Part shown: piece by piece, positions 9,601 through 60,900 of the stretch | How positions within the stretch are numbered: the stretch's first letter is position 1 | Layout of the letters: each line of letters starts with the position of its first letter | DNA from: Ophelia neglecta | Lineage: Eukaryota | Reading direction: 5' to 3' | DNA: 64,000 nt | NCBI GenBank assembly: GCA_965285935.1 | Contig: OZ260665.1 | Coordinates: 17,422,001-17,486,000 of the forward strand | The notes under the pieces: generated by a model | What the model was told of the DNA's origin: nothing | The model's database searches: none | What the model saw: the letters and a program-made list of their open reading frames with translations, nothing else | Position numbers and translations under genes: made by a program

Positions 9601-11893
9601 AACTTCTCATATTATTATTACACACGGCAGTATCGGTATTGTAGACGGGGACTTCTACAGGGAGTTAATGAATGAACATTTTATTGTCTAGTTAATACCA
9701 TTTTAGAAGAATATATTTTAATTTATTAAGGGGAAAATACGACTCTTTGATATGCATACAAGTGAACCTTCTTAACAATAATAATTTCTAAACGCCTTTT
9801 TAGGTAATGAATTTTTTCACAATCACATAGATTTTAAGCGTACTTTCTTCGTTTAGGGGTACAAGGTCCAACAGGGCCACCGGGCCCTCCAGGGCCCATT
9901 GGACCGGGAGGCGGCCCCGTGGGGCCCATTGGTCCCCCTGGCCGAACAGGAGCAACAGGGCCCAGTGGTAGTCCAGGTCGGCCGGGATCCACAGGTTATC
10001 AGGGTAACCCAGGAGCCGAAGGCCGTCCAGGCAGAACCGGAGCAACAGGCCCGTGGGGTGTAATGGGGCACACAGGTCGCACAGGCAGTACGGGAGCCTC
10101 AGGTTACGACGGCAGGACGGGTGGTACCGGAATCACCGGACCCGAAGGCCCGACTGGTCGAACGGGAGCCACAGGTGACCGAGGCTGGATGGGTAGTACG
10201 GGAGCCACCGGACCCGAAGGCAGGATAGGTCGAACGGGAGCCACCGGATCCACAGGCAGGATAGGTTAAACGAGATCCACCGGACAAGCGATTAAAGGTG
10301 AACGCGGCTCAGAGCGGGTCCTTTTCTTAAAAACCATCAGTGTCGTTCTCACAGCTTAATAAATATATGTAAATACCGCAGAGGTTCTCGGACAATAGCT
10401 TCATGATGATAGTTCAAATGCTATTCAAATCACCCAATGAAGTTAAATATTTGAGACAATTTTTAAACTAATCTCGATCAAAATTGAAACATATTAAAAG
10501 GAAACTAATTTTTAGATGCATTCAAATTGTTTAAGTATGAATAAATATTAAGGATACAAATACAATATAAAATAACCAAGATTCTGTTTGTGCAGAAAGT
10601 GAAAGTTATAGATAAATTTAGATCTGGATATGTTACTATTAGCAAATAAAATGCTTTTGCCTATATTGAAACCTAATGTTTTTATATCGACTTTAACAGC
10701 AAATTAACGTTTAAATCTATATATTTAGTTTTAAATGACGCTATTCGCATAATAAGCATGTAGACTCTTCAGATAGTTTGCTATGAACATTCCGATTAGA
10801 AGTAAAGGGCATTTATCACGGTCAGTGTTTAAACGGAGACAGAGAAATGTACTCGCTTGGCTCCAATTGTGTAACTCCTTATTAACAAGATAAGACACAA
10901 ACCACTTGTTACGGCAGCCTAGGCCGAGTAGTGACAAAGTTGGTACGGCATGTGGCGCCCCCAGTTAATCGCCAGCCGAAATGTGTCGCTAAGTGTATCT
11001 TAGTCACGTGACAGTCATGGAAGGAAGCTGCCAGCAGCGTAATTTGGGTTGTTCCTCTCTGACCGGGCATCTGTCGAATAATATGTAAGTTCTGATAATA
11101 ATAATAACAACAGTACTTTCTTGTAAATTTATCATGGTGTATGTTTGTGCAGTTTATTTACGCTGTCGTTTCGTAATTTCAGCAAACCTACTGATATTGC
11201 TGGTGAAGGCTAACCGTCGTTCGTGTTGAGAAGAAAATAAAGTGTCGTCAATAGAGTGTATTTACTGGTACCAGACTTGTCATTTATCCGTGTCGTAAGA
11301 GTTTGGACGTCACACAACTGTTATATTGCTAGTAGTACACAAAATATAAACACATACCCAGCTACCATTTTCCGCTGGTCTTGTGTGATAAGACAGTACA
11401 AAGATTGGTTATTTAGAGACTTATTACATAAACGTCTACATATCCAGGAAGTGACGTAGCACTGCGGCTAACAGTGGTGATGCTATAATAATGTAGATTT
11501 AAGTTCATAGACAACAGACATGTTTTTTTCGTCTCAATGGCGTCAACTGCAGACCTATAGGTTAGCAAATTGTCTGGTGGAGTAATATATTCCACGACTG
11601 AGATATACGGACCTGGCTGGTGGTTGCCAGTAGGTTCGGAAATGGTATTTTTCTATGGATAAACTTCTAATTAATTTAAATAATTGTTTTCTGCCTCCTA
11701 TATAACTGACGTCTTGGCTGAATTTACTTCGTGTAGTCATCCGATGAAAATAGATCAAAATTTGCGTTGTCCATATTTAAATGCACGCTGCTAGAACATG
11801 TCTGCCTGCTGTGTCACGTGGTCAGGTGACGGGTGGCCCAGGTGAGTGATTGAAGGAGTGAATAGCTACTTTGTGTTAAATGTCAACGGGGCG
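6617..11893 (+). repeat. Segmental duplication unit A (collagen-like locus)
   Basis: 6617-6790 recurs at 11894-12066; 8778-11893 aligns with 16050-19010; its 3' part also aligns with 47790-49995. Confidence 0.8.
9857..10269 (+). pseudogene. Collagen-like gene copy A: intact Gly-X-Y exon, signal-peptide exon missing
   Basis: TTTAG acceptor at 9855-9856, then [34 protein letters not shown]...GRIG*. The region that holds exon 1 in copies B and C is replaced by unrelated sequence at ~8110-8777. Confidence 0.7.
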
Positions 11894-15206: not shown

Positions 15207-17359
15207 ATGATTGTTTATTTCTTATTTTCTCTGTGGGTGATCTGCGGTGGGCAGGAAACATCCAACGAGAGTTTCTACCCGGTCATTCAACTGAAACCAG
15301 AAATAGAAGACAAAGACATGTGTACCTTTTTGATTCGAAATTCTTTCCTTAAACAGTGTATCAAAGACACTGGTCTTGACGATGATAGGAAGCTTATTGC
15401 TGAATTGAAATGGGACATTGCTGCTCTGAAGGTCCAAAATGTTGCCATCATGTCTGCTTTAAAAGAACTGCAAAACAATGGTGAGTAACATTTGATGACT
15501 TGACCCCCAAAAAGGTGATGCATACTGTCGCATTTTAAATTTGCGAAATGATGTAGGAATTAAGTATACGAACTTTAACCACAAAACTGGAATGCCCTCT
15601 CATGTTTCTTAAGCCCTAACTAAAGTAGTAGACACTGACAGATAGCGATATGCAAGGAATCCAGTAGCGACACAATTCGAACTTGAGTCTAATTGTCAAG
15701 GTCAAATAGGCAAAGATGAATTCTTCCCAGTCGCGTTACGATTAAATGTGGAAAGATAGGTGTATAAAATGTATTTGCCATTAGTAGGAATTCATATCCA
15801 GTGAGTCTTAATTTTTATCTTCATTTTGAACTTGACCTCATTTTATGAGTGGACCGATGTAACAGAAATCCCCATTGCCATCTCATGGCTTATCGAAGCC
15901 AGCTATACGCACCAAATGTATTGACCAACAAAAGGAAGGCATGTAAGAAAAGACCAGGGTGATTTTGAAGGTGGACTCCTTATGTATTAATATGTAACAA
16001 GTCAAATTGCCATAACTGGAATCCTCTCGGTCTCCCACAGGCTTAGCAACGCACGATAAGTGTGTTCACAATGAAATTATTTAATCTAATGTAGAGGTTA
16101 TTTGAGGAAATTGAAGTCTTATTTGTGTTCGTATGTATTGTTTTACGGTGCAAAAGTATACCGAAACTTTTTTTTCTGAGTTATAGTGGCAAAATGTAAC
16201 GGTATGCATGTGAAGTGAAGCTAATCACTAGTGACTTGTATATACGTAGTGTATTTGTGTCCTGCAATCAAATCGTATCTCATTTTAAGCTAAACATCTG
16301 CATAAAAGCATTCGCCCCTTCAGTTGAAAGGTTTGCATAACAAAAAAGGGCTCGCCTGTTCAACGTGCACTGCACACTTATTCACAATAAACTACCTAGA
16401 TATGACATACATGTGTCCCCGTGCCTAACCAACCATGTTCTCTACGTTTATTTACAGTAAATGTTATAGTACAATAAATGCTAGTGCAAAAACAATGTTG
16501 TACGCCTGGCAAGTGCTGTAGTTTTTATGTTAGAGATGCTATTGCTAGCCCCCTAGCCATTTAATGTACCATTTGGCGAACAGCCGGTAACAACGAACAC
16601 AGTAGTATATGTAGAAAAGAGTACCTTCACGATAATAACATTTACAAATGAAATATCATTAATAACTTCCCATAATATTATTACACACGGCAGTATCGGT
16701 ATTGTAGACGGGGACTTCTACAGGGAGTTAATGAATGAACATTTTATTGTCTAGTTAATACCATTTTAGAAGAATATATTTTAATTTATTAAGGGGAAAA
16801 TACGACTCTTTGATATGCATACAAGTGAACTTTCTTAACAATAATAATTTCTAAACGCCTTTTTAGGTAATGATTTATTTCACAATCACATAGATTTTAA
16901 GCGTACTTTCTTCGTTTAGGGGTACAAGGTCCAACAGGGCCACCGGGCCCTCCAGGGCCCATTGGACCGGGAGGCGGTCCCGTGGGGCCCATTGGTCCCC
17001 CTGGCCGAACAGGAGCAACAGGGGCCTATGGTAGTTCAGGTTCGGCGGGATCCCCAGGACCGAGAGGCGACCTTGGTTACCCAGGAGCCACAGGCCGTCC
17101 AGGCAGAACCGGAGACTCAGGAGCAACAGGCCCGTGGGGTGGAATGGGGTCCACAGGTCGCACAGGCAGAAGTGGTCGAACGGGAGCCACAGGTGACCGA
17201 GGCTGGATGGGTAGTACGGGAGCCACCGGATCCAGAGGCGGGAATGGTCGAACGGGAGCCACCGGATCCAGAGGCGCGTCTGGTCGAACGGGAGCCACCG
17301 GATCCTCAGGCAGAGATGGTCGAACGGGATCCACCGGATCCACAGGCAGGATAGGTTAA
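15207..17359 (+). CDS. Secreted short collagen-like protein, copy B; exons 15207-15480 and 16920-17359, 237 aa
   Basis: Signal peptide MIVYFLFSLWVICGG, C-x11-C (CTFLIRNSFLKQC) and heptad coiled coil (LIAELKWDIAALKVQNVAIMSALKEL). A phase-1 GTGAGT...TTTAG intron joins in frame to Gly-X-Y repeats rich in GRT/GAT/GST. Confidence 0.85.
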
Positions 17360-20660: not shown

Positions 20661-20706
<46 letters not shown>

Positions 20707-20708
<2 letters not shown>

Positions 20709-23168: not shown

Positions 23169-23205
<37 letters not shown>

Positions 23206-23211
23206 TATATA

Positions 23212-25248: not shown

Positions 25249-25335
25249 TATATATATATATATATATATATATGTTTTTCATAGTGACTATAGGGCAAAT
25301 AGATTGTAAGGACATACCTACAAACACTATAATAA

Positions 25336-28847: not shown

Positions 28848-29049
28848 GTTGATCTAGGATCAAGAATAAAAACTTTTAGACCGTTAATATATATATCCTT
28901 AATAGAAAACAGTATCAACTTGCCAGTGCCAGCCAAATGTCAGTCTTTTATAAGTTATTCAGGGAAAGAATTAGTTTTCTTTTCCAATTTTCCAAATTGG
29001 AACCTAGGAAGGGGGTTAATTTGTTATGATGGACGATTTTTCTGGTCCC

Positions 29050-32000: not shown

Positions 32001-32828
32001 GGCTATTCTCCTCACTGCTTCCTCTGACACGTCATTCTCTGATTCTGAATATAACACCTGTTGTTCCGATTCGATATCAAATATTTCACCCAGACAGGTA
32101 TTACAATGCATCACTACTGGCTTGCTCTGAGGATTCAAGATTCTGATTGGAATAGTCTTTTCGTAAGGGTCCACTAACGTGGCGGCCATCTTGATAACAT
32201 ACTTTTCTTCTACTGCAGGCAGTGGTTCAAAGAGTGCTCTGTCCCTACCAATACGTAAAACGTTTCTCCCTTCTATTATCATTTCAGATTTTGCAGGTAT
32301 GACATTATCTTCCACCATAAAAACCTTGCATGCACCCACGGCATTTGTCCGTCTGACTTCTGCTTTTTCTCCCATGAGCAATCTGCCTTTCTGCAGGTCG
32401 ATATGGCAACGATGTTTTCTAAGGAAATCTAACCCAATTATCCCACAGTCACTGATGGCCGCTACAATAACTTCATGTGACACCTCTTTGTCACCGACTG
32501 CTATTTTCATTTCAGCGCAACCAAGAGTCCTGAGCGGATCTCCATTGGCCATTTCCAGCTTATGTCTTCTGTCACTACCTTCTATGATAACCGGTTTATT
32601 TTCTACAGAAAGTTTCTTGTAAGTTTAAGTTAGTATTGTCCTGCTAGCACCAGTGTCCAATAAAAAGGGAACGTCCAATTGTCCCACCCTACAGTTAACA
32701 AAAATTCCTTTTTCAGCTGCCGTTCTACTGATATGCACAACTTCAATGTCATTTTCTTCCGTACTACAGGTTTCACCGGTCGACTCTGGGCCGTTAGAAT
32801 CGACCGATCCTAGTTTTCCGACTGACAC
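29050..32828 (-). pseudogene. pol: Gypsy pol (protease, RT, RNase H, integrase) with in-frame stops
   Basis: FLLDTGAS protease; RFCIDYRRLN and FIYLDDII RT; DTDAS RNase H; GHMG..CEIC, DLLGP, TDQ, GMVERFN integrase. TAA stops at 32625 and 30042 in the same frame, and a frameshift near 29120. Confidence 0.95.
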
Positions 32829-33837
32829 GTTGGCAAATCACACTGCTCTAGTGAGCGGGTCGGAATAGGTTCCTGTGCTTTATTTCTTCTCTCTTTTTCA
32901 GGGCAGTCCTTGGCATAGTGGCCAGCCCCATTACAGGCAAAAGAGAAAAATTCTGTTTTCTGCCTCGTTACCGGTTTTGCCGAAAAATTATTGGCCACGA
33001 GCTGCTCCAATAGATGAATTGTTTTCTCCAATAGTTTCTGTAACCCATCCGTACTTCCAGGTTTCTCTCTTGGCTTCATATACTTGCTCACTTTCACTGT
33101 ATCAATATCTATATCAGAGACCTCTTCGTCATCGACTGATGGACGAACCATTCTGACAGCTTTTCGTGGGTGCTTGCCCTTCAAAGAAACATATGAGTAG
33201 TAGGCTGCTACTAAGTCCACAGCTTCGTCTAAGGTACGGGGCTTTTGTAGATATTTGACACGATACTCGGTTTCTTGATCACGGAGTCCATCAAAAAATT
33301 GCTTCAACAACATGTCCTCCTTCACCGCCTGTGACACACCAGTAGGGTAAACTCGCTGTATAAGAGATTTCAAATCAGCTGCAAATTCACGTGGGGTCTC
33401 ATTTTGTCGGATAGATCGGTTGTAAAATAGAGTTTGACAAGCTTCTCTAGTTTCAACAATCTGGAATCTTCTTTGCAAATGAAATTTTAGGAGATTGTAG
33501 TCGGTAAGCACTTCTGGCTCCAGTTCAAAAGCAAAATCTGCAGCTATGTCTGAAAGACTAGCTAACAATTGATTCAGTCTAAGATTTATGTCCACACCTG
33601 CCGTCATGAGTTCGAACCTTCGAATGAAGGTGTTCCATTTCGTCTTCCCATCACAAAGTGGTGTTCTTAACGGTTTTGGTCTGGGTAGGTCATATCTTGG
33701 TTGCTGGGGCCAGTTGTTTCCTGGATAAACCGTTCCGTCCGTGTAACCATGATAAGGCTCATGATACTCTGTTTCCCACTGCTCAGCCGCATAGAATGAG
33801 GGCTGAGAAGTAGCTCGCCTAGGCTCAGCAGCATGAT
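32810..33837 (-). pseudogene. gag: Gypsy gag, 3' part
   Basis: CDGKTKWNTFIRRFEL..QNETPREFAADL..QFFDGL..PRTLDEAV, and degenerate zinc knuckle SFACNGAGHYAKDC; the frame is open from the LINE junction to 32810. Confidence 0.85.
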
Positions 33838-34851
33838 GAAATAAAGAAAATAGCTATTCACATGAAACCAAAATCATCTTGTGGCTTTGACAATCAGTCC
33901 CCAAAATTTATTAAACAAATCCTTCCTTCTGTTATTTTTCCTTTATTACAGTGTGACTGCAGTAGGAGAGACGATGACTAGGTTTGTGTTTCATACGGCT
34001 TTATTGTTTCTTAAATGAATGCCATGGACACCTTGGGTACCGTGAAACTGTAACAAATAAACTCACGATATATTCTTTACATATTGCACAGAGATCACAA
34101 CACAATTACACATGATAACATATACAAGTAAACGATGTAACGAACCTCTTTGGCCTCTTACAGTTCTGGCTCCTACATACAGTTATACTGTCGACCGTAT
34201 CGCTGTCGACTTCACCGAGAACACATGCACTGTCGCCGCTCACATAACGACAACCGCTACCGCAGACGCGTTGATGACCACTGACCAAATCTCAATATAC
34301 CAGATATCTTAGTGCCTTACGCAACAGAGCCGAGTCTCGGTACCGGAAGGTAAGGAAAGATCCGAGATCGCTGGTCAGGTACCCTGGTCATCAGTAGTGG
34401 TCAGCGGTCTGTCACACATAGCTATTTACAGTATACATAAATAGTAGTGACTACTTTCCGACCGGCCACTTATACGGCCACTTATACTAATAAAGTAGCA
34501 ACATTTACACTCCCGCCTGGAAATTAGGTTGTTTCCACAATTTCAATATATACACTTATCGTAGCTTGATATACATTAGTCAAAGCAACAATAATAACAC
34601 AATGGGAATACCTGAAATAAAGGGACCTGCAACAATATACACGAGATTCGTCAGTTTTCATACCTCGAATTGCCGATCTCTTGAGGCACGACAATAAATG
34701 CAATGTCGAGCCGTTACTAAACGGCCTCAAGTGCTGAAATACAATTTGTCACGACGTTAGAAACTTAAATAATGAAAGGATTAGTACCGGGAACGATAGC
34801 CCTATCGACATTAGACCGATGAGATGATTGATTAGAACGGAAGACAACCGC

Positions 34852-37800
34852 CTACGATTTAGATTCTAGTAAGAGTACCAGCTTGCAGACTGGTCTCTCA
34901 TATTCAGACAAAGGTGTCAGTCGTTCACCCTTGTTGTTCAGTTTGGTATCGCCGACTGCGATTTTAACCTTTCTTACTCTTTCATCCTTACTCGGATAAA
35001 CATCAGTGACTCGAGCTAACTGCCAATGGTTTCGGGGCGAGTCATCTTTGGTTATCACAATATCCCCGATCGCCAAGTTGCGTTGTGGCCTGCACCATTT
35101 CTTGCGGGCCTGCAGATTTTGCAAGAACTCAAGGCGCCAGCGAGACCAGAAAATATTTGCGAGATACTGCACTCGTCTCCAACGCCTTCTGACGTACAAG
35201 TCGGCTTCCTGAAATTCTCCAGGGGGTGACACGACAATCTGTGACTTCATGGTCAGGATTTGGTTGGGACTGAGGGGTTTTAAGGACGTTGGGTCGTTGA
35301 GATTGTCTGTTGTCAATGGACGGGCATTGAGAATTGCGGCTACTTCCGCAAGAAAGGTTCTCAATGAATCATCGTCCAACTGAGAACCCGAACGATCCAA
35401 CAAGGTAGTCAGGATGGATCTGACAGAGCGAATCTGTCGCTCCCAAACGCCACCAAAATGACTAGAATACGGTGGGTTCATCTGGAAAGAGAAGTCACAG
35501 TTGTTGCTTAGGAGAAATTGCTTGATACTACTGTGGTTCATCTCCTTCCAACATTCAGAAATTTCGCGTTTTGCTCCTACGAAATTTGTGCCCTGATCAG
35601 ACCGCAATACGCGAATGGTTCCACGGAGGGCAATGAAACGACGGAGTGAATTGATGAAAGATGAGGTATCTAATGATGGAACGACTTCGATATGGACGGC
35701 TCTGCACGCTAGACATGTATAAAGCGCCCCGTACCTCTTTACGCGCTTACGACCTTTAGTTACACACCATGGACCAAAGAGATCTACGGCACAGAAGGAA
35801 AAGGGTGGAGCAGAATCCAATCGATCCTTGGGGAGATCGGCCATTATCTGACAGACTGGCTGACCACGATATTTTCTGCACAGGACACATTTGTGAATGA
35901 GTTCTGAAACAGCGGAAGAACAACCTATGACCCAAAACCCACTATTTCGGATCATGTTAACGGTCATGCCACGGCCTTGGTGCTGTACAAGTTCATGACA
36001 GTATTGGATAATGAGGCGTGTAGCCAAATGCCTCCTCGGTAGGACCAGTGGAAACATTTCGTCAAATGGCAAGTCCGCTCGTCTCAAGCGACCACCTACC
36101 CTTAAAAGGCCGTCTTCATCAATGAAAGGGTCCAATTTATACAATTGACTGCCTTTCTTCAAGACTGCGTGGCGTTCCTTTACACGAACTCTATCGGTTT
36201 CGGAGGCAGAAACATCAAGAGAAGACAGAACCCTCAGTTCAGTTTCAAAGGCTTCGGCTTGGGTCAGCCGAACAATCTCCCTCTCAGAAATGGAGATATC
36301 TTCTGGTGTAACGGGTAAGTTTGCTGGTTTCTGTCTTAATCGTGCTTTATATTTCAGACAAAGTGCGATGGCTCGTTTTGCTTTGAACCAGTCTGAGAAA
36401 TAACCAAGAAGGCTAGACACGAACATGTTCGGATAGTTGACTGACAACGAGTGCACTTTAACTGCCTTGACTTCGGGATCGGAGACTGTGAATTCGACAT
36501 CCTTCCCGAGAGATTGAACCGGAAGCTCTGGCTTCCACAAAAAGGGGGGGCATCTGAGCCATATGGAACTTTCAACAAACTGCCTTGTGGACATACCTCT
36601 CGACGCTTCATCGGCCGGATTTTCACCCGTCGCTACGTAACCCCATTGGCATGGCTTGGTCTGATCCCTAATTTGTTGGACTCTATTGGCTACAAATGTG
36701 TGAAATCTCTTTGCATCATTTGAGATATAACCTAGCACAATCATACTGTCCGACCAGAAGTACTCCACAACGTTTTCATAATCAAGCTCTTTCCTTAGAA
36801 TATTGCTGACCCTTACAGATACGAGAGCGGCGGTCAGCTCCAGTCGTGGTACGGTGATCACCCTCATAGGCGCTACCCGAGCCTTCCCCATGACGAATGA
36901 GCAATGAACTCGCCCTGTACTGTCAATCAAGCGAAGGTAAGAACATTGACCATAGCCAAATGTACTAGCGTCGGAAAAGTGATGCAACTCCACCCCAACA
37001 CAATCGAAACTGCGGGGACAAAACGATCTATTGATTTGGAGTGAGTCAAGGAGAAACAGACTTTCACGCCACTGCTCCCACAGCATTCTGCACTCTTGGG
37101 GAATCGTTTCGTCCCAGCCTGCGCCATCTCGACAGAGCGACTGCAAAATCGACTTTCCGACTAAAACCACAGGTGCTATCAGACCCAGCGGGTCGTAGAT
37201 AGAACTGACTGTGGACAGAACTCCTCTGCGAGTGAGGGGCCTATCCTGCAGGGTTATTCGGAATTTTATTGTATCTGACTCAATACACCAATAGAGACCG
37301 AGGGCTTTCTCGATGGGGAGTGGATCGTTCGACAGTACATCGAATTCTTGAAGACCACAGGCCCGGTCTTCCGGCCTCACAGCATCAATCAATTCCCTAG
37401 CATTGGAAACGATTTTGTGCAAGCGTAAACCACCACTAGCACAGAGAATTTGGGCTTGTTTAACCAATTCGATTGCTTCATCCACTGTTGGGAGAGAAGC
37501 GAGGCCATCATCAACGTAGAAATTGTGGCGAATGAAATCTGCGGCTGGTCGACCGAACTGCTCTTCGGCGTCGTCAGCCAACCGTTTCAGACCAAAATTG
37601 GCGCAGCCTGGGGAGGATGATGCGCCAAACAAGTGGACAGTCATACGGTACTCCACAATCGCCTTGCCGTCAAACCACAAGAAACGCAAGTAATCTCGGT
37701 GCCTTGCACTGACTGAAAACTGGTAAAACATTTTTTCAACGTCACAAGAAAAGGCAACTGAACTCTGTCGAAACCGACAGAGAACTCCTATGAGCGTGTT

Positions 37801-38600
37801 TGTCAGATCGATGACCGATGACTCTTTCAGCATATCCCCGTTGGATCATGTTTTCAATGAAATCACTGTACTCCCGGTCAGGCTTCAATCGCATGAGCCG
37901 GCGCAAGGCTAGGTGTTTGTTGTTTGGCATAATCGGGTCGTCTTCCTTGAAGGGTAGAGGCATTTCATAGTGTTTATCTCCCCTTTTGATTATCCCCTTC
38001 GACATCATGGATAAGAACTGACTGTCTTCAAAGGAAAGAGGAGGGCCACACTTGTGGTCATCGAAATCCATCTCAAGGATGCTAGTGACCCTTTCAGTGA
38101 GGACCTCATGTACGCTAGTTCGCAAAGTAATAGCGACAGAAGGTAGCTCACTCGTGATGACACAATGGCTCGAACCAAAACCATCACTGTCAACTCCTCT
38201 GTGATCTACGATGCCAACTATACCCCAACCCAAATCAGTCCTTATTGCAAAGGGTTCATTGTACACAGGGGGTATGACATCACGAGGAGCCAAGGCACGG
38301 GAACAGTCATAACCAATGAGGAGACCGATGTGACAGTCACCCAGTGGCATAAGAGAATCGACAATTTTCTCCAAGTGAGGCCATTTACTGGCCATTTCAG
38401 GGGTAGGAATGTGTGTCCGATCTGCTGGCATAATTTCCCTGGTATATGTAGAGGGCAGCTGTAATTTCAGATCACTGTTGTAACCTCTAACAACTAAACC
38501 GTCTACACGGAAGCTTCGGATGGGCTGGTTAACACACGACATTGTTGATAGGGATAAGTTCACTGGAACACCTGTAATTCCCAATTTCTCAGTGAGCCGT
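34852..38600 (-). pseudogene. pol: BEL/Pao pol (partial protease and RT, RNase H, integrase)
   Basis: IGLLIGYD, YEMPLPFK, DVEKMFYQF, HLFGASSSP, FYVDD, LHHFSDAS, PRLEL, HQG..CVLC, DLFGP, SDQGTNF, GGVWER, RWRRVQ. Frame breaks at ~38598 and ~37815 fall where conserved blocks are missing. Confidence 0.92.
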
Positions 38601-40910
38601 TGAACTTGCTTTAACCTCACCTGGCGAGGTTGGTGTTGTCCTTTCAACACCAGATGACACATTTCCCGGTGAATCACCGTGGAGCAGAGTGGGATGCCTT
38701 TTATGACAGGTGTCGCAAGTATCCCGATTCTTACAAAATTTGGATCTATGACCGAACTGCAGACAGCCAAAGCAGAGCCTCTGGTCAAAGACAAACTGCC
38801 TTTTCTCTTGTAGAGACAAGGCAGACAATCTTCCACAAGAGCTAGTTTTATGTGTTCCATTACACATAACACATAAAGGTATATACGACGGAACCGTACT
38901 GTCATTACTTCTGTGATCAGCAGTCTGCTGCGTAGGCCTTGGATGTACAATTGATGCGAGCACCTTTTTGGATAAACCCTGCCCTTTATCTGACGAACGA
39001 TCCTTATCACAGGGAGCAGAGGACCCTCCACCTTTTAGAGCCTGGAACGAAGTAATGGGGTCACAAGCGATCTCTGCTTCCTGCACTACAAACTCTACAA
39101 ATTCCTGAAACAAGGGAAAGGACTGGGCTTCCCTTTTACCAGTGGCTACAATTCGTGCCCATCGAACAATGACCCAATCGGGGAGTTTCATTAACAATTT
39201 CTGGTTTTCCTGTTCATCATTTAGAACAGTGAGCGACCGTATAGTCCGCATGGCTACCAAACATTGACGTAAAAAATCTGCAAATTGGCGCAGAGCGGTC
39301 CCATCTCTGGGCTGTATCTTAGGCCAAGAAGAAAGCCTATCTCGAAAAGCCTTTGCTACAATGAAAGGATCTCCGTATCGCTGATCGAGCAAAGTTTTAG
39401 CTTCACTATAAGCATCTTCGGTAGACAAAATAAAGCAACCCTCTACAACACTTCTGGCCTCTCCACCAAGATAACGCTTGAGATAATGTATTTTCTCTTC
39501 TTGGGGGATATGTCTATGGTCAACCAAGGCAGAAAAGGCTGATTTCCACGCAGGATATTGCAGGGTATTCCCTGAGAACACACCGGGCTCGGGAGGGGCC
39601 AGCCTATTCAACGACAACTGTTCTGCCAACAGACCTACCATGGCCTCGTTACTCAAACCTTGTTGAGAGTAGGACGAATGACCAAATGGACATTGCGGAG
39701 GGTTTATCAATGGAGATTCTTGCCTGGACGACATCACTGGGCCAGACACAGAAATAGAGGGAACAAGCGGTGCATATCCATGATAGGGCGCACCTGGCTG
39801 AAAATTTGTGAAATGACCAACAGAGGATTGCAACAAGTGTGTTCGTGAAGACTCTTGTCCAGGAAACGACACTTGATTTGACAACGAACTTGAAGGACCA
39901 GGCGGTGCATAGCTATGAAAGGACACATCAGCTTGGCTAGATGTGAAATGACCAACAGAGGATTGCAACAAGTGTGTTCGTGAAGACTCTTGTCCAGGAA
40001 ACGACACTTGATTTGACAACGAACTTGAAAGACCAGGCGGTGCATAGCTATGAAAGGACACATCAGCTTGGCTAGATGCTAGTCCAGTCATAGTCGACGA
40101 TTGCTGCCCATACGTCGGCTGCGTATGCACGGAAATTGTAGAGGAATACATAGTTGATGCCACCGAAGACAAAGTCGGTGCCCTATCGCAAGATTTAGAC
40201 GCAACTGTGGCAGTCGGTTGCATTGTCAGAGTCCGAGCAATCTGATAAGTACTCGAGCCAGCGGAGGGAGTTGGGGCAGGTTCCATCGAAGACGTTGATG
40301 GGGCAACCTGGTACGATACTGATGCCGCAGCTGCCACTGGACATTCCCCAGGAGTACGTGAGGGAGCAGGGTTTGGATATGTGGTTTGAGAATCTAAAAA
40401 CTTGGACAAAATGATAGATTTATTTTCCACCTCTGACACATCATCCTTTCCCTTACCCAGAGATGCTAAGTCATCGTATTCCTCAAAGGTATCTATCACT
40501 TTGAGTTGGGCTTCGGTCTCTTCCATTTCCCTCATAGTCTGTAATTGCTCTAAGGCATATTTTTGCTCTGACTCTGCCTTAAGATAATTTGATTTTACTT
40601 TCAGGGACTCAGAATGCATAGCCAGTTCTAACCGTTTTTGTGAAGTGCTACTAGCACGAGAACTTTTCCTAGACTTTAGGCTCCTGCATCCTGGGCCTTC
40701 ACGGTTTGACTTGGGGGGAGGAAAATACAGTCTACCTTCATATACAAGCTTAGACAAGGTACCCCCCGGTATATCAGGTATATTTCCTATGTCTAAATTG
40801 TCCAGTGGACGCCCTAGATTATTTCTGTATTCTAGAAATTTCTCTGTCCTGACTGGACCTATTCCATAGAGGGTTAGTAAATCATCTTTCGTGATGTCAT
40901 TCACGTCCAT
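38589..40910 (-). CDS. gag: BEL/Pao Gag with N-terminal helix-hairpin-helix domain
   Basis: PEPGVFSGNTLQYPAWKSAF..EKIHYLKRYL..RYGDPF (Pao gag core); three Cys/His knuckles CVMC..H..C, CFGC..GH..C, CDTC..HP..LH; N-terminus DVNDITKDDLLTLYGIGP. Confidence 0.9.
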   Translation of the reverse strand: MDVNDITKDDLLTLYGIGPVRTEKFLEYRNNLGRPLDNLDIGNIPDIPGGTLSKLVYEGRLYFPPPKSNREGPGCRSLKSRKSSRASSTSQKRLELAMHSESLKVKSNYLKAESEQKYALEQLQTMREMEETEAQLKVIDTFEEYDDLASLGKGKDDVSEVENKSIILSKFLDSQTTYPNPAPSRTPGECPVAAAASVSYQVAPSTSSMEPAPTPSAGSSTYQIARTLTMQPTATVASKSCDRAPTLSSVASTMYSSTISVHTQPTYGQQSSTMTGLASSQADVSFHSYAPPGLSSSLSNQVSFPGQESSRTHLLQSSVGHFTSSQADVSFHSYAPPGPSSSLSNQVSFPGQESSRTHLLQSSVGHFTNFQPGAPYHGYAPLVPSISVSGPVMSSRQESPLINPPQCPFGHSSYSQQGLSNEAMVGLLAEQLSLNRLAPPEPGVFSGNTLQYPAWKSAFSALVDHRHIPQEEKIHYLKRYLGGEARSVVEGCFILSTEDAYSEAKTLLDQRYGDPFIVAKAFRDRLSSWPKIQPRDGTALRQFADFLRQCLVAMRTIRSLTVLNDEQENQKLLMKLPDWVIVRWARIVATGKREAQSFPLFQEFVEFVVQEAEIACDPITSFQALKGGGSSAPCDKDRSSDKGQGLSKKVLASIVHPRPTQQTADHRSNDSTVPSYIPLCVMCNGTHKTSSCGRLSALSLQEKRQFVFDQRLCFGCLQFGHRSKFCKNRDTCDTCHKRHPTLLHGDSPGNVSSGVERTTPTSPGEVKASSTAH
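39672..40076 (-). repeat. 135-bp (45-aa) tandem repeat inside BEL gag: two near-identical copies and one diverged copy
   Basis: SSQADVSFHSYAPPG(L/P)SSSLSNQVSFPGQESSRTHLLQSSVGHFT x2, then NFQPGAPYHGYAPLVPSISVSGPVMSSRQESP. Confidence 0.9.
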
Positions 40911-43584
40911 GATTGAATGTATGAGTTACTAAATGGTTGTCACTGTGCAAATGAAGATGAATGAAATCGTTGTTGGTTCCCACAAGTACCTTTCAAATGG
41001 GGTTCGCAAATGAAGGACCAACAACGAAACACAGTATTAAAGGTGCAACACAGTATGAAAATGCCCAAGGAATTGAACTCAATGTCCCTTGGAAAAGTCA
41101 TGCATGAAAACTCGAAGTACACACGTGAGCACAATAACAAATTCAAATACAACATGCACATGTTCATTCAAGAGAATACGAAGACTATCAATCCATTTAA
41201 TATAAAACGATGAAAATGAATTTAAATCACAATAAATTACAGTTCAAACAAGTCCGTGAGAAGAAAGTGCGCCATGCTAGAAATCACAAAATGGTGGCAC
41301 TTCTATCCTTGACGGAGGAATCCAGGTAGCATACGACACAGCGCAGACGTCGTGAAGGAGTGGCATAGAGTTTCACTGTGACTGCAGTAGGAGAGACGAT
41401 GACTAGGTTTGTGTTTCATACGGCTTTATTGTTTCTTAAATGAATGCCATGGACACCTTGGGTACCGTGAAACTGTAACAAATAAACTCACGATATATTC
41501 TTTACATATTGCACAGAGATCACAACACAATTACACATGATAACATATACAAGTAAACGATGTAACGAACCTCTTTGGCCTCTTACAGTTCTGGCTCCTA
41601 CATACAGTTATACTGTCGACCGTATCGCTGTCGACTTCACCGAGAACACATGCACTGTCGCCGCTCACATAACGACAACCGCTACCGCAGACGCGTTGAT
41701 GACCACTGACCAAATCTCAATATACCAGATATCTTAGTGCCTTACGCAACAGAGCCGAGTCTCGGTACCGGAAGGTAAGGAAAGATCCGAGATCGCTGGT
41801 CAGGTACTCTGGTCATCAGTAGTGGTCAGCGGTCTGTCACACATAGCTATTTACAGTATACATAAATAGTAGTGACTACTTTCCGACCGGCCACTTATAC
41901 GGCCACTTATACTAATAAAGTAGCAACATTTACAACAGATTTTTAACAGTATGATCAAAACGAGTGAATTTCCAGAGGACATGAAAATATCAAAGGTACT
42001 TCCTTTCTATAAGTCAGGTGACCTAACAAATGTTACAAATTACAGACCTATTTCAATCCTACCTACATTTTCCAAAATATTCGAAAGGCTGATATACAAC
42101 AGATTATATAATTTTTTCACCAAGCAAAATATATTTTTCCCTTCTCAATATGGCTTTAGAAAACATCATTCGACAGAACATGCAACCCTAGAACTAATAG
42201 AACACATTACCCAGAAACTAGACCAAAAGAAACATGTTGCTGCAATATTCATAGACCTTACCAAAGCTTTCGACACCATCAAACACACTATTCTACTTCA
42301 GAAACTATTTCATTATGGCATAAGGGGTACACCCCATAATCTATTGAAAAGCTATCTCTCTAATAGGTCACAATATGTTCTCTTCAAACAAAAATCATCA
42401 GAATTACTAAAACAGAAAGTTGGTGTACCTCAAGGGTCAATCCTTGGGCCCTTATTCTTCTTAATTTACATAAACGACATATATAAATCACTGAATACAA
42501 CATCATAACCTATCCTGTTTGCTGACGACACCAGTGTAATTATTCATAATAAACATTTAGAGAGGTTATACAATAACATCAATCACGAACTCTCAAATAT
42601 ACAAATCTGGATTAAATCAAATTTCCTATCCCTCAACATTAAGAAAACTAAATTTATGATCTTCAAAAACTCTAACAACCCACCAGACCAGATTCCCGAT
42701 TTATTTAGAGTAAAAATAGACAATACAATAATAGAACAAGTTTCTACATTCAAATTTCTTGGCATACATATTGATGAACATCTCAATTGGAAAACGCACA
42801 TAAATGAAAAATGTAAGAAAGTGTCCCAAATCATAGGGCTGATGAATCGCCTAAAACAATATCTTCCAACATACATTCTAAAAATTATCTACAATTCTTT
42901 AATACAACCTCATCTCTTTTATGGTATCACAGCCTACTATAACTGCACAAACTTGTCAACATGCAATAGACTTTTTCTCCTTCAGAAACGGGCCATGAGA
43001 ACCATCTCAAAATCATGGTACCTGGCCCATACGGAACCACTTTTCAAATCGCTCAAAATTCTAAGATTAAATGATCTATATTTTGTCAAAGCATTAAAAA
43101 TCTATTTCAACATCATACAATCCAAATGCCCAAACTTTACAAAACAATCGGTTGAACTTGTTGACCAAGGCAAAAAACAATACTACACCAGAAACAATGA
43201 CGTTATTGTAAGAAAACCCTTTAGAACAAACATTATTAAACAATGTCTTTGGTTTAAACTGCTCAGTGTCACCAACCAAATCCTTCACCACTACAAAATA
43301 CCACTAAGTCAATCATACAATTACAAAGCATATTTCATAAATACATATACTAACACCTGTAATATAAATAGCTGTTACATATGTAACAAAACTCTTCTTG
43401 TCTGATATTGTACGTCGTATATATTTGTCTGCACACAGCAGTTTATTGGTTTTCTGAAATGTTTAGTGATCTCGTCACGCTTAATATTGTACATCATATA
43501 TACTATGTCTCAAAGGGGCGGCCAGCAAAAACGGCAGATGCTATAGCTGGCGTCCAGAATAAATGTATTTCAATCAATCAATCA

Positions 43585-45937: not shown

Positions 45938-48426
<2,489 letters not shown>

Positions 48427-50496
48427 ACGAGATCCACCGGACAAAGGGGCTTCCATGGTGAACGCGGCTCAGAGCGGGTCCTTGTCTTAAATACCATCAG
48501 TGTCGGTCTCACAGCTTAATGAATATACATATGCATACCGCAGAAGTTCTCGGACAATCACCCAGAGAAGTTAAATATTTGAGACAATTTCAAAACTTAT
48601 CTTGATCAACATTGAAACATATTAAAAGGAAACCAATTTAACATGCATTTAAATTGTTAAAGTATGAATAAATATTAAGGATACAAATATATTATAAAAT
48701 AACCAAGAGTCCGTTTTTGCAGGAAGTTAAATTTATAGATAAATTTAGATCTGGATATGTTACCATTAGCAAATAAAATTCTTTTGACTTCATTGGAACC
48801 TAATGTTTTACATCGACATTAACAGCAAATTAACGGTTTTATATCTATACACTACTTTCAAATGACTCTATTCGCATAATAAGCATGTAGACTCTTCAGA
48901 TAGTTTGCTATGAATATTCCAATTAGAAGAAAAGGTCATTTATCACGGTCCGTGTCGCAGAAATGTATTCGCTTGGCTCCGATTGTGTAAACCTTACAGG
49001 ATAAGGCACAAACCACTTGTTACGGCAGCCTAGGCCAAGTAGTGACAAAGTTGGTCCGGCATGTGGCGCCCCCTGTTTATCGCCAGCCGCAGTGCATGTC
49101 GCTAAGAGTATCTAGGCCTACAAGTCGCGTGACAGTCATGGAAGGAAACTGCCAGCCAGCGTAATTTGGATTGTTTCTCTTTGACCGGGCATCTGTCGAA
49201 TAATATGTAAGTTCTGATAATAATAATAACAGTACTTTCTTGTAAATTTATCATGGTGTATGTTCGTGCAGTTTATTTACGCTGTCGTTTCGTAATTTCA
49301 GCAAACCTACTGATATTTCTGATGAAGGCTAACCGTCGTTCATGTTGAGAAGAAAATAAAGTGTCGTCAATAGTGTGTATATACTGGTACCAGACTTGTC
49401 TTTCATCCGTGTCGCACCACTGTTATATTGCTAGTAGTACACAAAAATTAAACACCCAGCTACCATTTTCCGCTGGTCTTGTGTTATAAGAGAGTGCAAA
49501 GATTGGTTATCTAGAGACTTATTACATAAACGTGTACATATCCAGGAAGTGACGTAGCACTGCGGCTAACAGTGGTGATGCTATAATAATGTAGATTTAA
49601 GTTCATAGACAACAGACATGTTTTTTCGTCTCAATGGCGTCAACTGCAGACCTTAGCAAACTGTCTGGTGGGGTATTATTATATCCTCCACGACAGGGAT
49701 ATACGGACCTGGCTGTTGGTTGCCAGTAGGTTCGGAAGAGGTATTTTTCTATGAATAAACTTCTAATAAATTTAAATAATTGTTTTCTGCCTACACCTGT
49801 GTCATAACTGACGTCTTGGCTGAATTTATTTTGTGTAATCATACGATGAAAATAGATACAAATTTGCGTTGTTCATATTGAAATGCACGCTGCTAGAACA
49901 TGACTGCCTATTGTGTCACGTGGTCAGGTGACGCGAGACCCAGGTGAGTGATTGGACGAATGAATAGCTACTTTGTGTTGATTGTCAATGGGGCGGGGCT
50001 TACCCATGAAGTTCACCGTTTGCATACAAGGAGTTTGGATATTTTCAGCTTTTAAGTCTGTTAAGATTTGACTGAACCAAATAAGTCTTATTCCTCGAAC
50101 ACTAAATAGTGAATTACTTGATTGGCTTTAAGTAGAATGAAGCAGTTATTTAATAGAATTCACATTGTTTTGACACTGAGGGCGATGCCAGGGCCATGAT
50201 GTAGGCCTAGCAACAGCCTAGCAACGTACTCGTAACTGAGTCCGTGGAGGGGGGGGGGGGGGCTGTCAGGCTTGCTAAGTCTCGCTACTACGTAGGTCCC
50301 CTGACAGCAAACCCCCCCCCCCCTCCTCCTCCTCGTCAACTACAAGATGTGAAGTGGGGAATGAGGAGTGGAGAAAAAGTGACACATGTCCCGATTAACA
50401 AGTTACAAACTAGTATTTTGAAAGTTTTTTTAAACTTTTATTACTTTATTCTATGCATGAGATGATAGGGCTATAAGAGGCTGTCTTATACAAGTA

Positions 50497-53566: not shown

Positions 53567-56307
53567 ATGGCGATGGTCCTATCACAAAATATTAAAGTTG
53601 GCCTGATATATCTAGTATTAATATTAGAGCTTGTGCAAGGACAATCCACTGGAAGTAATGACTTTGTAAGGTATGATATAGGCGACAAGGACCAAGGAAT
53701 CTGTTCTTATTTTGTACGAGGTTCCGTAGCAGACGACTGCCAGGGTCTGTCCGGTCTGACAGCCGATGGGGAAACTACGGTGGCCCAGCAGGTAACAGTC
53801 TTACAACAAGACTCGGTCAGACAACAGAGAAAACTGGACCAGCAGGAACAACTTCTATCGGAGCAAAAGGACCAGATCGAGGGATTGGAGAACAAGATAA
53901 AATCATTGGAAGATAGACTGGACGCCGTGCTACAAAGTGGAGGTATGAATACACGTCTGAATGTAGTGCCTAAATGTCTTTTCCGTGCGATAATAGGTTT
54001 ATTCAGCGCACGTTGAAAATACGGATTTAATTCCGCGCAGTAAGTAGTACAGTATTCGTGGAATAAGCCTACTTAATGCTCGAAATAAACGATGCGCGAA
54101 CTTAATACTGTATTAATTTTGATAAACAGGTGTCAGCACTGTTGTCATATAAATAACACAAGAAACTTCGACAGCGGAAAAATCGCACAACACCCAGAAC
54201 AAAATCCTTCTCACGAAATGCCCCGTCTGACATTTACCTGCTTAGACCTATTTTCCCTCAGAAATCACGTAGTTTCTTTTGCCTGAATTAAAAAAGCTAG
54301 AGAAAACTTTATTCATTTGGTATATCTTAAAGCTATAATTCATATCGGGAATCGCTAGGGCGAACTTTGTAGAAATAATGACCCGAGTTATGGCAAAAAA
54401 TTGCTCTAGTTAAAGCTAAACTGTGGATTTACTTAGGGCACCAGTATGCTGTCCAAAGGCTGTTTTTTAATTGCGCACGGGCTTTAAAAATTTAGCCTTA
54501 AAAAACTACCCTAGGAGCGGAGCTTACCCGGATGCCAAGTATACTGACTGAATTTTATTTTAAAATTATTTGTAGTTAGATATACGAACATTGTCTTATT
54601 GAATAATTAATCAATTAATTACTAAAGTAACTATTAATCTCAATAACGTCTTTGTGTAGCCTTTACAAACGCAGGTAAAATAGAGTACATAGATTATAAT
54701 ATGTTTTTTGCAGAAGAAAAATGTCTTTGAGAGGTGTTGTTTTCAGTGTTTTGTCATTACACATCTAAAGATACGTCACTTCCTTGTATTCTGGAAGCCA
54801 CAAAACTATATTTACTGTTAAATACTCACAATGTTATTATTAAAAAAAATATAGGCCTAACTCCACGTTACCCCACAAAGTAAAATGCAATTTAAAAAAA
54901 AATCAAATTATATATTATTAGGTTTTATAAGTTGAACTTATACAATGATATGTTATTATTTAGTATTGTAATTCAGGTGATTTATTATTTTTAGGTACGG
55001 GTGGTCTCAGTGGCGTTGCTGTCCCTGGGCCTCCCGGTCCGATTGGTCCAGCGGGACCTCCTGGCGTACCAGGGAGTAAAGGCAGGACAGGGGCTACGGG
55101 CAGCCGTGGTACGATAGGGGCCACTGGCGGTACCGGACCCCTCGGCGGCCCTCCGGGCGTCCCCGGTGTGCCTGGACGAGATGGGTCTACAGGAGGTACC
55201 GGTCCTGGGGGTAGAACAGGGGCGACCGGTGCCAGCGGACGACCGGGGTCACTTGGCAGGCCAGGCTCTACCGGTCTGGCCGGAAAAACAGGTCCTGCCG
55301 GTGTTCCTGGCGAACCAGGACCTATCGGGCCCGGCGGGGGACCTCCAGGGCCCACAGGAGCTACTGGGGCTGCCGGTCCATCGGGCGGACCCCCAGGGGT
55401 GGCTGGAGCACAAGGAAGGGATGGCAAAACCGGAGCTACAGGGACCGCTGGACCAGTTGGTCGTACAGGGGCCACCGGTAATTTGGGCCCTGCCGGCCCG
55501 AACGGTATATCAGGCCGCACCGGGGCAACGGGATCTAGTGGCCTTCCCGGTTCCGTCGGCGAGCCTGGGGCAATCGGTGCCACTGGACCTCTAGGAGGGC
55601 CTCCTGGGGCAACTGGGGCTTCCGGGCGCCCAGGACCCTCGGGCGGTCCTCCTGGTCCTTCAGGGGCGACCGGGTCTACTGGAGTCGCTGGTGCAGACGG
55701 CGGGGTAGGTCCTGCCGGCCGAACTGGGGCCACAGGGCAACGGGGAAGAACGGGAGCGCCTGGAGTGTCTGGTGGTACAGGAGCAACGGGTTCTAAAGGC
55801 TTCGCCGGGCGGCCAGGGACTCCAGGTGCCCCCGGGCCAAGCGGCGGGCCGCCGGGACCCGCTGGAGCGACAGGGAGCACGGGGCCGGGCGGGGGCCCAC
55901 CTGGTGCTACGGGAGCTACCGGTAGCCTGGGTCGGACGGGGGCTACCGGTACCGCTGGAACCTCCGGGTCCTCGGGACCGAAAGGACCAACAGGCGCAAC
56001 GGGATCCACAGGGCCCCTGGGATTCACCGGCGCCACAGGACCTGATGGAAAGACCGGCGCTGACGGACTCCCCGGGCCAACCGGACCTGGAGGCGGGCCT
56101 CCTGGACCCATAGGCGCCACCGGCTTCACGGGACCTCTCGGCGGGCCTCCGGGGCGGACAGGAGCCACCGGCAGCAATGGAAAAACGGGAGCTACTGGAC
56201 AGCCGGGCAAGTTTGGTCGAACGGGTGCAACTGGAAATACAGGATCACGTGGTCCGTCTGGCTTTACCGGCGCTACTGGATCTCCAGGGCCATCCTCGAG
56301 ACGGTAA
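53567..56307 (+). CDS. Secreted collagen-like protein, copy D (older paralog); exons 53567-53942 and 54995-56307, 562 aa
   Basis: Signal peptide, C-x11-C ([13 protein letters not shown]) and long coiled coil ([33 protein letters not shown]); phase-1 GTATGA..TTTAG intron; ~140 Gly-X-Y triplets with nine G-GPP interruptions. Confidence 0.88.
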
Positions 56308-57935: not shown

Positions 57936-60900
57936 TTAATTAATATCTGTCGTTGGAATATACATTTTACTGTCAGCTACAAACTGTTTATTTAATGAAC
58001 TATCACTAGAAAGTTGTTCGGGCGTAGACTGCAAAACCAGCTCACACGTTGTTTTACCTCCGTTACTACTCGGTGTCATGGAAAGTGTGTCAGTCGCCGA
58101 TTGCAGCGCCGCTGTGACAGTGCCCAACTTTTTAAAGAGATATGGTGTGTAAAGAACAAGGTTACTAAACAGCTTGCTGTCCATAATACCCAGATCTACA
58201 CCGCCATCTAGCGGTATATCAACGAAGTTGAAAGATGGGTCCAAAACTCTATTGACATCGTCTATCGTTTGGTATATGCTATCAAGCAAGGCGAAGTCGG
58301 CGTATTTGAGCACATGACCTTCAAAGGATTTCACCTTGGTGAGAAGGTCACTGAGTTTTAACCGAGAGAGGTTTACAATTGACAGGAAGTCGGTCACTAG
58401 GTCAGTCTGTACGGTTTTCCCAACGCTAGGACTTGCGCGCAGGTAGCGATGGACGGATATGACGTCACCCAACGTGCAGAATACTTTAATATCCACTGGT
58501 TTGACAAGTTTTAAGGTCATGAGAAAATCCTTTCTGTGGGCAGAAATGTGTTGATGGCGTCCATCCAGAGAGGCAATATGAGTTTTAAAATCCTCCAAAA
58601 CGTTCTGAAAAGACGTTGCACAGTCTATTCGGGACATGAAGTTTGGTTCTTTAACTGAAATCATAAAACATATAAAAAAAAATTTGTAAAACGGCTATTC
58701 GAAATAGTGATGTATATACGCAACAAAAAACACTTCTTTCTCTAGGCAAGGCAATAAGGCGAATAACAGGGTGGAAACTATATCCATGTTATCAGAGTTT
58801 TAATAGAGTTGGGAACTGCATGATTGCCGGTTATAGCCGTCGGCATCCAGAAAAATACGGAAAAATATAGGTTTTTCTAAAGCAAAACGCCGTCCGCTTT
58901 TGAACATTTTGTCTCCATTTTAAGGAAGAATATTCGTTACATGGGTGGACCCAATGAGCATGCAGTCCCCCTCCCACGCCCTCGGGAACAGCCCTACAGG
59001 GCACTCGTTGTGAAAACAATTGACAGTGACATCACAGTACAGTGAAACCTGCCTTAAAGACCACCTCTGTATTAGGACCACCTGTCAATTCAGACCACTA
59101 ATATGAAGGTTATAGTATACATTTTCAATGTAAATTAACCTCTGTAAATAGACCGCCTCTATAATCAGACCTACAATTGCCAGTCCCTTGGGTGGTCTTA
59201 AATCACAGGTTTGACTGTAGTTGTATTCTATAGTTACCTTCTCTCTCTTCAAGGTTCAATCCGGGTTCCTGTTTAATGGCGTTGTCAATATCCACAATGG
59301 TCAGCTCTCGTTTACAGCGCTCGAAATCGGCTGGCTCAATGATAGTGTCCAAGATGAGATTCTGTCAAACGGAAATAGGCAGTGGAATCAAATGTTTACT
59401 ACTTTCGCTTTTTTTTATCTTTTTCAGTAAAACAATTGGTTATGTCACCCCACTGTTCATGCAGTAAATTCGGAAGCACGAATCTACTGATGTCAGCAGA
59501 TTCGTAAACTGTCTCGTGTGTGTATTTACTTATCCACTTGTATTGTATAATGCCTACCTAGCCCTGGCAGGAGAAGTTATATAACACAATACTTGAAGAG
59601 TTACTACGCCTGACCGCATTATAATGAGCGATAACACCGGACACTACAGCCCTGGATTCCTATAGAACTAATGATTCCGCGCACCGCCACAATTTTCTTT
59701 TTCAATTTTCTTTTCTTACCTTGCCCTTAAGGAATTGTAAGTTTGAAAACTGGTCATATTTTCAATGGAAAATATGATTAAATTACATTTCAAATTTCAA
59801 AATCCAACAACGGTGTTGTTGATGTTTGCAAACATTTCATCTGAATTTCATGTAATTTTCATTTCATTTGCGCCGTCCGTCTTGTGGCTAATTGTGGAAC
59901 AATGACGTGGAGGTTTTACCCCTGACTATTTATAACAGAATTGACTTGTGCATAGTAGATTCATAGAACCGAACTCCATCGGCGCGACAGCGCCACGGCC
60001 ATTCGAATCTACGAATCTACTGCTGCTCGTTCATTCTCTACTTCATAACTAGGTGATGTCTTACATCTTGATTTTCAACAGTTTTCCCGACTTTTTTTCA
60101 ACGCAGATTCGGAAAATGTTATAAACTGATTAACTCGTGATTGCATTGTTAGAAAAGTGACTATTTGTCGATGGATACGAGTGGAAGGAATCTTACAAAC
60201 CAAATAAGGGACATGAGCAAACTAGTTTCACATGAATTGCATTTCTTTAGCAAGTAAAGCAACGAAATTTTTGGTCATTAATTAAACCGCTATAGGAGTC
60301 ATGTTGCCTGGCAAAAGGTGCTAGCTAATTATGTACCTGAACTCCCATCTCCTCCATGAGCTCTGCGTTGGCAAGGACTTGATTCACGATCTTGTTGAGA
60401 AATCGTTTCCGGTAGAGTTTCTCCAGACGCTGTAGAGCGCTCGGAGTTCGACACTGCATCTGAATGACCAGACTACCAACCGACAGCGTCTTGATCTCAA
60501 TGTCTGCAAGGTCAGGCAGGGCGGAGAACTGCTCTATGTAGATACTCTCATCCCGCAATACGGCTGGAAACAGATGAATTAACTTTACACATTTTATTAG
60601 ATTTAACCGCGACAACACAGGAAAGAATACCATGCAGATAAAGCAAAATACATGATCAAGAATGGTCGAGATACGGTCTAGCGAAACACCGAAATAACCT
60701 TTGCAATGCCGAAATAACCCGAAATAACCTCTAAAAACTATTAATTTTATCGAAATAACCCCTTTTTCATTTGTGGAACTTATAATTTATAAGTGTGAGA
60801 CCTTTGGCACCTAGCGATTGATGGTGAAATAGCAGTCATTTTGATGTACCCGACCGGGCATAGATCGTATTGTGTTAAGTTGAAAATAGGTCATTGGAAA

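Follow-up and report, generated by a model that had tools for sequence, protein, structure and literature searches.

Why does an animal collagen break its triple helix nine times with the same single residue, and at spacings that repeat? The question is raised by copy D, one of four paralogous collagen genes (A-D), all on the + strand, in a stretch of 64,000 nt of the Ophelia neglecta genome (the window). A first-pass annotation proposed that the spacing is under selection and produces either a triple helix with regularly spaced double kinks or the turns of a polyproline-II bundle. Here, we found that the pattern is real, old and probably constrained. The whole explanation that we favour, and hold to be fairly probable, is that copy D encodes a secreted homotrimeric short-chain collagen whose period derives from an old duplication and whose block lengths have been held by purifying selection.

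Gene structure of copy D

Exon 1 (53567..53942, +) ends at a putative phase-1 GT donor and contains a signal peptide or hydrophobic leader (about residues 1-25), a Cys46/Cys58 pair spaced by 12 residues and, by heptad scoring, a coiled coil (about residues 73-124) with 71% hydrophobic residues at the a/d positions of the best register. It gave weak coiled-coil-like matches only in Pfam, and 18 weak coiled-coil matches against PDB sequences (best E 0.032). A putative GT-AG intron follows (53943..54994, +); the acceptor at 54994 is favoured, since run X3 carries a deletion of one nucleotide at 54987 that would throw an alternative upstream acceptor out of frame. Exon 2 (54995..56307, +) is an open reading frame for a short linker, a collagen domain (Pfam PF01391, E 1.8e-44) and a stop codon, and its junction with exon 1 in phase 1 would give a product of ~562 aa. 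The stop lies a few residues past the last triplet, so that a C-terminal globular domain is absent in this reading; a candidate GT donor is present at 56305. Domains of the C1q, NC1, lectin and TSPN types had no Pfam match in the seven ORFs scanned, two long downstream ones included.

The collagen domain (55027..56295, +; ~423 residues) comprises 138 Gly-X-Y triplets in ten blocks. Thr occupies the Y position in 51 of 137 scored triplets (37%), Gly-Ala-Thr occurs 23 times, and the domain is basic (28 K+R, 7 D+E).

Nine identical hinges at regular spacing

Exon 2 carries nine one-residue insertions, each a single extra Gly, and all of them lie in one context, Gly-Pro-(Leu/Gly/Ser), extra Gly, Gly-Pro-Pro, just as the first-pass annotation had described. 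The extra Gly codons start at 55144, 55336, 55384, 55594, 55642, 55843, 55891, 56092 and 56140. The first hinge (55144..55146, +) is single; the others form four paired-hinge cassettes on the + strand at 55327..55398 (extra Gly at 55336 and 55384, five triplets between them), 55585..55656 (55594, 55642), 55834..55905 (55843, 55891) and 56083..56154 (56092, 56140). The uninterrupted blocks measure 13, 21, 5, 23, 5, 22, 5, 22, 5 and 17 triplets. Thus, the alternation of long and short blocks reported earlier stands, but the triplet counts given with it are one too low after the first block, because the post-hinge triplet had been taken as part of the interruption. The six blocks of 13-23 triplets exceed the 6-repeat definition of a collagen run, and the four 5-triplet spacers lie just below it.

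From hinge to hinge the spacings are 64, 16, 70, 16, 67, 16, 67 and 16 residues, which makes repeat units of 80, 86, 83 and 83 residues; the autocorrelation has its top lag at 83 aa (249 nt), and the proposed super-period of about 83 residues is thereby recovered. When nine breaks were distributed at random among the 138 triplets, none of 2,000,000 placements matched this regularity on either of two statistics. All nine internal Gly-Pro-Pro triplets directly follow a hinge, the other two standing at the start of the domain, and the Pro fraction of X/Y positions is 0.375-0.5 in the four pre-hinge triplets, 1.0 in the post-hinge triplet and 0.125 in mid-block.

The paralogues A, B and C

A hinge of the same type occurs once each in A, B and C, in agreement with the earlier observation. 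It is followed by 38 triplets in A (collagen exon 9857..10269, +), by 41 in B (15207..17359, +; exon 1 15207-15480, collagen exon 16920-17359) and by 52 in C (45938..48426, +; exon 1 45938-46211, extra collagen exon 47001-47165, last exon 47888-48426). An exon 1 of A was not found by tblastn or blastn between 6500 and 9857 in the window; A may be a truncated duplicate, and it may be a pseudogene. The extra collagen exon of C was not found in A or B, and the last exon of C is expanding through repeats of 36, 81, 117 and 153 nt. A, B and C have a common stop codon behind which degenerate Gly-X-Y coding continues in frame (10267-10360, 17357-17450 and 48424-48510), so that this exon probably extended further in their ancestor.

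Modelled triple helix and proposed mechanism

A triple helix, one of the two folds suggested by the first-pass annotation, is supported by structure prediction. A homotrimer model of 77 residues over cassette 1 (within 55270-55500) scored 0.50, the best of three controls 0.01; its runs shared at least 97% of contacts, partner pLDDT was at least 85 and 77/77 residues lay in a staggered interface. The mark applied was reached by 21/30 solved one-chain pairs and 0/23 single chains from microbes, and by 17/29 and 0/30, respectively, from eukaryotes; this calibration used two copies and the model three, and the pass may reflect memory of solved collagen peptides. As a single chain, 147 residues of copy D reached a pLDDT of only 40 in AlphaFold.

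In the mechanism that we propose, the N-terminal coiled coil would register the three chains and nucleate the trimer, the Cys pair may link the chains, and the triple helix would zip from the N- towards the C-terminus. Being imino-poor and Thr-rich, the rod probably depends on O-glycosylated Thr at Y, as we infer from Riftia cuticle collagen and BclA: according to the accessible parts of two reports, (Gly-Pro-Thr)10 is a coil unless its Thr is glycosylated (PMC11923368) and the Riftia cuticle collagen depends on glycosylated Thr (PMC11766948). Each extra Gly would shift the Gly register by one and thereby create a local flexible joint, while the Pro-rich triplets on either side, chiefly the Gly-Pro-Pro after all nine joints, would clamp it and restart the helix. 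The 5-triplet spacer may be near the minimum length that stays triple-helical between two breaks. As the block interiors diverged almost past alignment, purifying selection would have kept the lengths, most tightly that of the spacer. With a rise of 2.9 A per residue (PMC8968730), the rod would measure ~120 nm and consist of stiff segments of 18-20 nm connected by double joints of 4-5 nm. We speculate that it forms a flexible extracellular glycoprotein filament, with cuticle, tube, mucus, egg coat or adhesive matrix as candidate settings.

Age and origin of the period

The period is not young. The codons of copy D were said to be diverged, and they are: fourfold third positions are identical in 77/252 hinge comparisons and 30/111 cassette comparisons, at a chance level of 0.25, while the amino-acid identity of the cassettes is 0.78. 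The longest exact repeat is 13 nt in D (17, 25 and 97 nt in A, B and C), and TRF found arrays in the exons of the three paralogues but not in that of D. A recent near-identical DNA duplication, which the first-pass annotation had named as an explanation of the period that would refute its reading, is ruled out by these repeats, arrays and fourfold sites.

Traces of an older event persist. The long blocks have just 7-14 of 32-40 X/Y residues in common, and their homology score of 100 compares with 85.0+-4.9 for shuffled blocks (p 0.004) and, marginally, with 90.1+-5.4 for rotated ones (p 0.05). In two look-alike loci described below the signature of duplication is visible in the codons, with fourfold identities of 636/1425 (0.45; chance 0.25) in L021 and 60/114 (0.53; chance 0.29) in L054. 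Based on this faint unit homology and the young repeats of the look-alikes, the period of copy D likely arose by old tandem duplication of a unit of ~83 residues that comprised a long block and a paired hinge. The first-pass annotation did not notice that the paired hinge is also present in bacterial and viral proteins with no relation to D, where tandem duplication produces it; this argues for duplication as the origin of the period even if its retention was selected.

The hinge in other proteins and a geometric reading

Is the paired hinge a common element of collagen-like proteins? The exact pattern with a 5-triplet spacer was found at 16 loci in bacterial and archaeal genomes and at 38 metagenome loci. 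Many are Thr-rich collagens (records of Paenibacillus, Terribacillus, Thermoactinomyces, Bacillus and Oscillospiraceae); others are not collagens but merely rich in Pro and Gly. The metagenome ORF L021 (L021:1-4042), of more than 1340 residues, is collagen throughout and carries 12 paired hinges in the same long/short alternation as D, with periods of 44-185 residues; its long blocks are mostly 22-23 or 29-30 triplets, differences of 7. L054 (L054:74-1732) is an intronless ORF with a hydrophobic leader, a Cys cluster, a coiled coil and a Thr-rich collagen with four paired hinges and an 85-residue period, three times repeated. It differs from copy D in an additional two-residue break per unit and in its younger repeats, and its N-terminus aligns weakly to that of D (19%); a basic site in it is presumably furin-like.

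Since this pattern has a spacer of 5 built in, single hinges were scanned as well. Among the matches listed (122 genome and 128 viral loci), a collagen filter rejected 87 and 10, respectively, and 10 viral duplicates were removed; 35 and 108 loci were kept, with a clean hinge-to-hinge block in 7 and 32. The per-locus spacings among these matches (n=49) were 3 triplets once, 4 twice, 5 nine times, 6 seven times, 7 five times, 8 and 9 once each, with a tail to 59. A viral scan that covered spacers of 4, 5 and 6 triplets gave at least 120 loci in at least 59 clusters for 4, at least 121 in at least 81 for 5, and 86 in 59 for 6. Thus, five triplets is the mode of a band from 4 to 7, and no fixed code. 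Periods of paired hinges outside D range from 41 to 315 residues, with 9/39 at 82-92 (a Gly-fraction filter dropped 3 of the 29 rows listed), so that 83 residues is not clearly privileged; a special 83-residue period across proteins is unsupported.

These data bear on a geometric reading, by which the paired hinge is a compensated crank, with spacer and period alike adjusted to the phase of the helix. A 10/3 collagen superhelix turns by 36 degrees per triplet, so that five triplets make half a turn and the two kinks would be opposed and cancel. The 5-triplet spacers throughout D (4), L021 (12) and L054 (4) speak for such tuning, the latter two loci having been found by a pattern that requires one such pair, as do the modal position of 5 with 21/49 spacings at 5-7, the viral clusters (at least 81 at this length, at least 59 at 4 and 59 at 6) and the recurrence of periods of 82-86 in L016, L021, L054 and L623. 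Against it stand the frequent spacers of 4 and 6 and those of 7 (5/49), all among the matches listed, the small share of periods near that of D, and the long blocks of D itself, which vary from 21 to 23. Homotrimeric peptides with short interruptions, moreover, remain roughly rod-like. For incommensurate interruptions PMC11923368 mentions a proposed kink, but it states that crystal structures of them do not exist and that their structural effect is unknown for this reason. In copy D the paired joints may be floppy, may compensate each other as a half-turn crank or may fold the rod. We consider a geometric code of this kind unlikely, and unlikely too its expected product, either a rod that runs straight but steps sideways at regular intervals or a planar zig-zag able to pack into a lattice.

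A related suggestion, possible though doubtful, is that Thr-rich collagens of animals, bacteria, archaea and viruses have repeatedly evolved one as yet undescribed structural element, the paired extra-Gly hinge with its Pro clamps, whose two kinks lie about half a superhelical turn apart, and that D is a natural periodic array of it that selection has maintained long past the saturation of its codons. With kinks that either cancel or add up in one fixed plane, copy D would build a filament or lattice in segments, repeating every ~24 nm; if the rod is straight and the spacing in orthologues loose, copy D is an ordinary interrupted collagen. The D homotrimer, with nine breaks in one context, together with microbial and viral spacers of 4, 5, 6 and 7, offers a ready series on the effect of an extra Gly, which could show whether kinks can be phased and is relevant to collagen design.

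Is the spacing maintained by selection?

The opposite reading is a frozen accident: an ancient tandem expansion in which the hinges are merely tolerated and the spacing has no function, its lengths persisting because triplet indels are rare once the DNA repeats have diverged. Three indels of one triplet each separate paralogues A and B, in which 79/88 fourfold sites are identical; the indel count rests on an alignment with a poorly aligned middle. In simulations, the probability that the lengths of copy D outlast saturation is 0.0003-0.0015 at this rate, 0.01-0.07 at 0.3 times and 0.18-0.43 at 0.1 times the rate, where the lengths need no selection; over 0.1-0.03 times the rate P is 0.18-0.81. 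The A/B rate is probably an upper bound, since all three paralogues of D are rich in repeats, which may make their exons slip faster than D, and A is possibly a pseudogene. The earlier claim that the spacing is under selection thus holds in part: some length constraint is indicated at the A/B rate, but not at a tenfold lower one.

Besides the outcome at low indel rates, a frozen accident is favoured by the visible origin of the pattern through duplication in L021 and L054 and by the lack of DNA repeats in D that could drive slippage. It accounts poorly for hinge residues that are near-invariant while their codons are at chance and the block interiors have drifted apart, and for length changes that occurred in long blocks and in none of the short ones. 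We regard it as quite unlikely. Judged from the sequence, selection on the block lengths of copy D, most of all on the spacer, is likely.

Three contig runs from one sample cover copy D. The allelic differences in exon 2 are synonymous in five of six cases, with none at a register Gly and no indels (P 0.017; one sample), and in exon 1 in five of eight, again with no coding indels (one sample). This pattern shows a constrained gene, which is distinct from constrained spacing. All six exon-2 differences of run X3 fall within 55089-55275; the exon is identical over the kilobase that follows its first 280 nt, and the single replacement among the six turns its triplet into the commonest one.

The polyproline-II alternative

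The second fold put forward by the first-pass annotation, a polyproline-II bundle in which a single chain would fold into antiparallel helices with the extra Gly as the turn, on the pattern of springtail antifreeze proteins, is highly improbable: these proteins resemble copy D in being secreted and in having Gly at every third residue, and a five-triplet block is near the length of a bundle helix, but they differ in oligomer state, in Gly content and in the lengths of both helix and loop. As far as the accessible part of PMC10235112 goes, they have 3-4 GX1X2 repeats per helix, loops of 3-6 residues and often Gly at X1, and in the accessible part of bioRxiv 10.1101/2023.11.25.568672 Gly content grows with the number of neighbours in the bundle; copy D has blocks of 5 and 13-23 triplets (the long ones 21-23), one-residue breaks in 9/9 cases and Gly at 4/137 X and 4/137 Y positions. 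The upstream coiled coil and the modelled three-chain helix also argue against a bundle.

Relation to known collagens

The preferred reading, a secreted homotrimer with selected block lengths, can be set beside known systems. In the nomenclature of PMC11923368, the hinges of copy D are G0G interruptions. They make up 9/9 interruptions in D and, in the accessible Supplementary Data 2 of that paper, 2/393 human, 3/155 archaeal and, counted by eye, about 320/23,869 eukaryotic rows; in human collagens the type is one of the rarest. The first archaeal row of the interruption list in that paper is a copy D-type hinge, unremarked in the accessible part. Interruptions described there tend to have Lys-Gly-Glu/Asp flanks, in contrast to the Pro-rich flanks in D. 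A literature search, missing most subscription papers and the main supplement of PMC11923368, found neither paired nor periodic G0G hinges described, and the module is apparently undescribed; a description of this protein type was likewise not found, again with most subscription papers missing.

The best sequence and Atlas matches of D, among the matches listed, are BclA-type Thr-rich proteins of Bacillota, archaea and viruses, which have a comparable share of Thr at Y and the same single and paired extra-Gly hinges. Thr is found at Y in 31.6% of triplets in all bacteria and in 48.3% in Gram-positives (PMC8968730), and Thr triplets are anomalous in prokaryotes and viruses and not in eukaryotes, according to the accessible part of PMC11923368. 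Copy D differs from the BclA type as an intron-containing animal gene with a signal peptide and an N-terminal coiled coil, and it lacks the prokaryotic context and C-terminal trimer domain of that type; the similarity is of low complexity, so that convergence and transfer are not distinguishable. As an animal collagen with bacterial-type Thr content, D may offer a second setting for Thr glycosylation in place of hydroxyproline.

Among animal collagens, that of the Riftia pachyptila cuticle likewise carries Thr where it can stabilise the helix; compared by description, from the accessible part of PMC11766948, it forms a very long, high-mass triple helix, whereas the ~423 residues of D are broken periodically and its 138 triplets are followed by a stop, unless the donor at 56305 is used. 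FACIT, types VIII/X and IV and the stalks of C1q and MBL share with D a short triple helix with incommensurate interruptions. C1q and MBL stalks are kinked. The C-terminal C1q, lectin or fibrinogen domain of types VIII/X, C1q, collectins and ficolins is absent from D by Pfam in the seven ORFs, and the stop follows the helix. Copy D works like an interrupted short-chain collagen and belongs to the collagen-like superfamily, but fits no named family tested.

With the collagen exon as query, the orthologue search gave low-complexity matches only among the best 120 of 4633, and those with a name came from bacteria or fungi; in Atlas exon 2 falls among collagen clusters. Exon 1 found no orthologue among longer proteins, either alone (480 candidates) or as an alignment (7998 scored). 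Its weak Atlas match (0.79; commonest taxon Mollusca) hints at lophotrochozoans but is a lead only. A representative library gave four matches, P0121-P0124, of which P0121-P0123 are repeat proteins matched by chance. P0124 is animal-like, matches exon 1 with E 4.2e-4 and is 44% identical to C; L018, also animal-like, has an ORF with leader and coil, followed by another ORF that encodes the collagen and contains a single paired hinge. P0124 is a true relative of exon 1; P0124, L018 and L054 fall short of demonstrated orthologues.

Genomic neighbourhood

By its content the window is animal DNA, with LTR and LINE elements, an innexin and intron-split genes; copy D, one of the latter, lies near the innexin and LTR elements. 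The innexin ORF (2356-3300, -; PF00876, E 8e-43) is apparently single-exon. Beyond copy D, an ORF of 252 aa (57936-58694, -) lacks a Pfam match, and one of 153 aa (60325-60786, -) has a weak TRADD-like N-terminal match (E 0.018). A cluster of retroelement ORFs (27987-43405, -), which we take to be Gypsy-like, Bel/Pao-like and LINE reverse transcriptases, separates B and C. It is flanked by repeats at 26341-27399/44013-45071 (99%) and 33946-34509/41371-41934 (99.5%), which suggest nested recent insertions between the two genes. A satellite of ~330-340 bp occupies 20664-25273, with sub-arrays of 168 and 244 bp.
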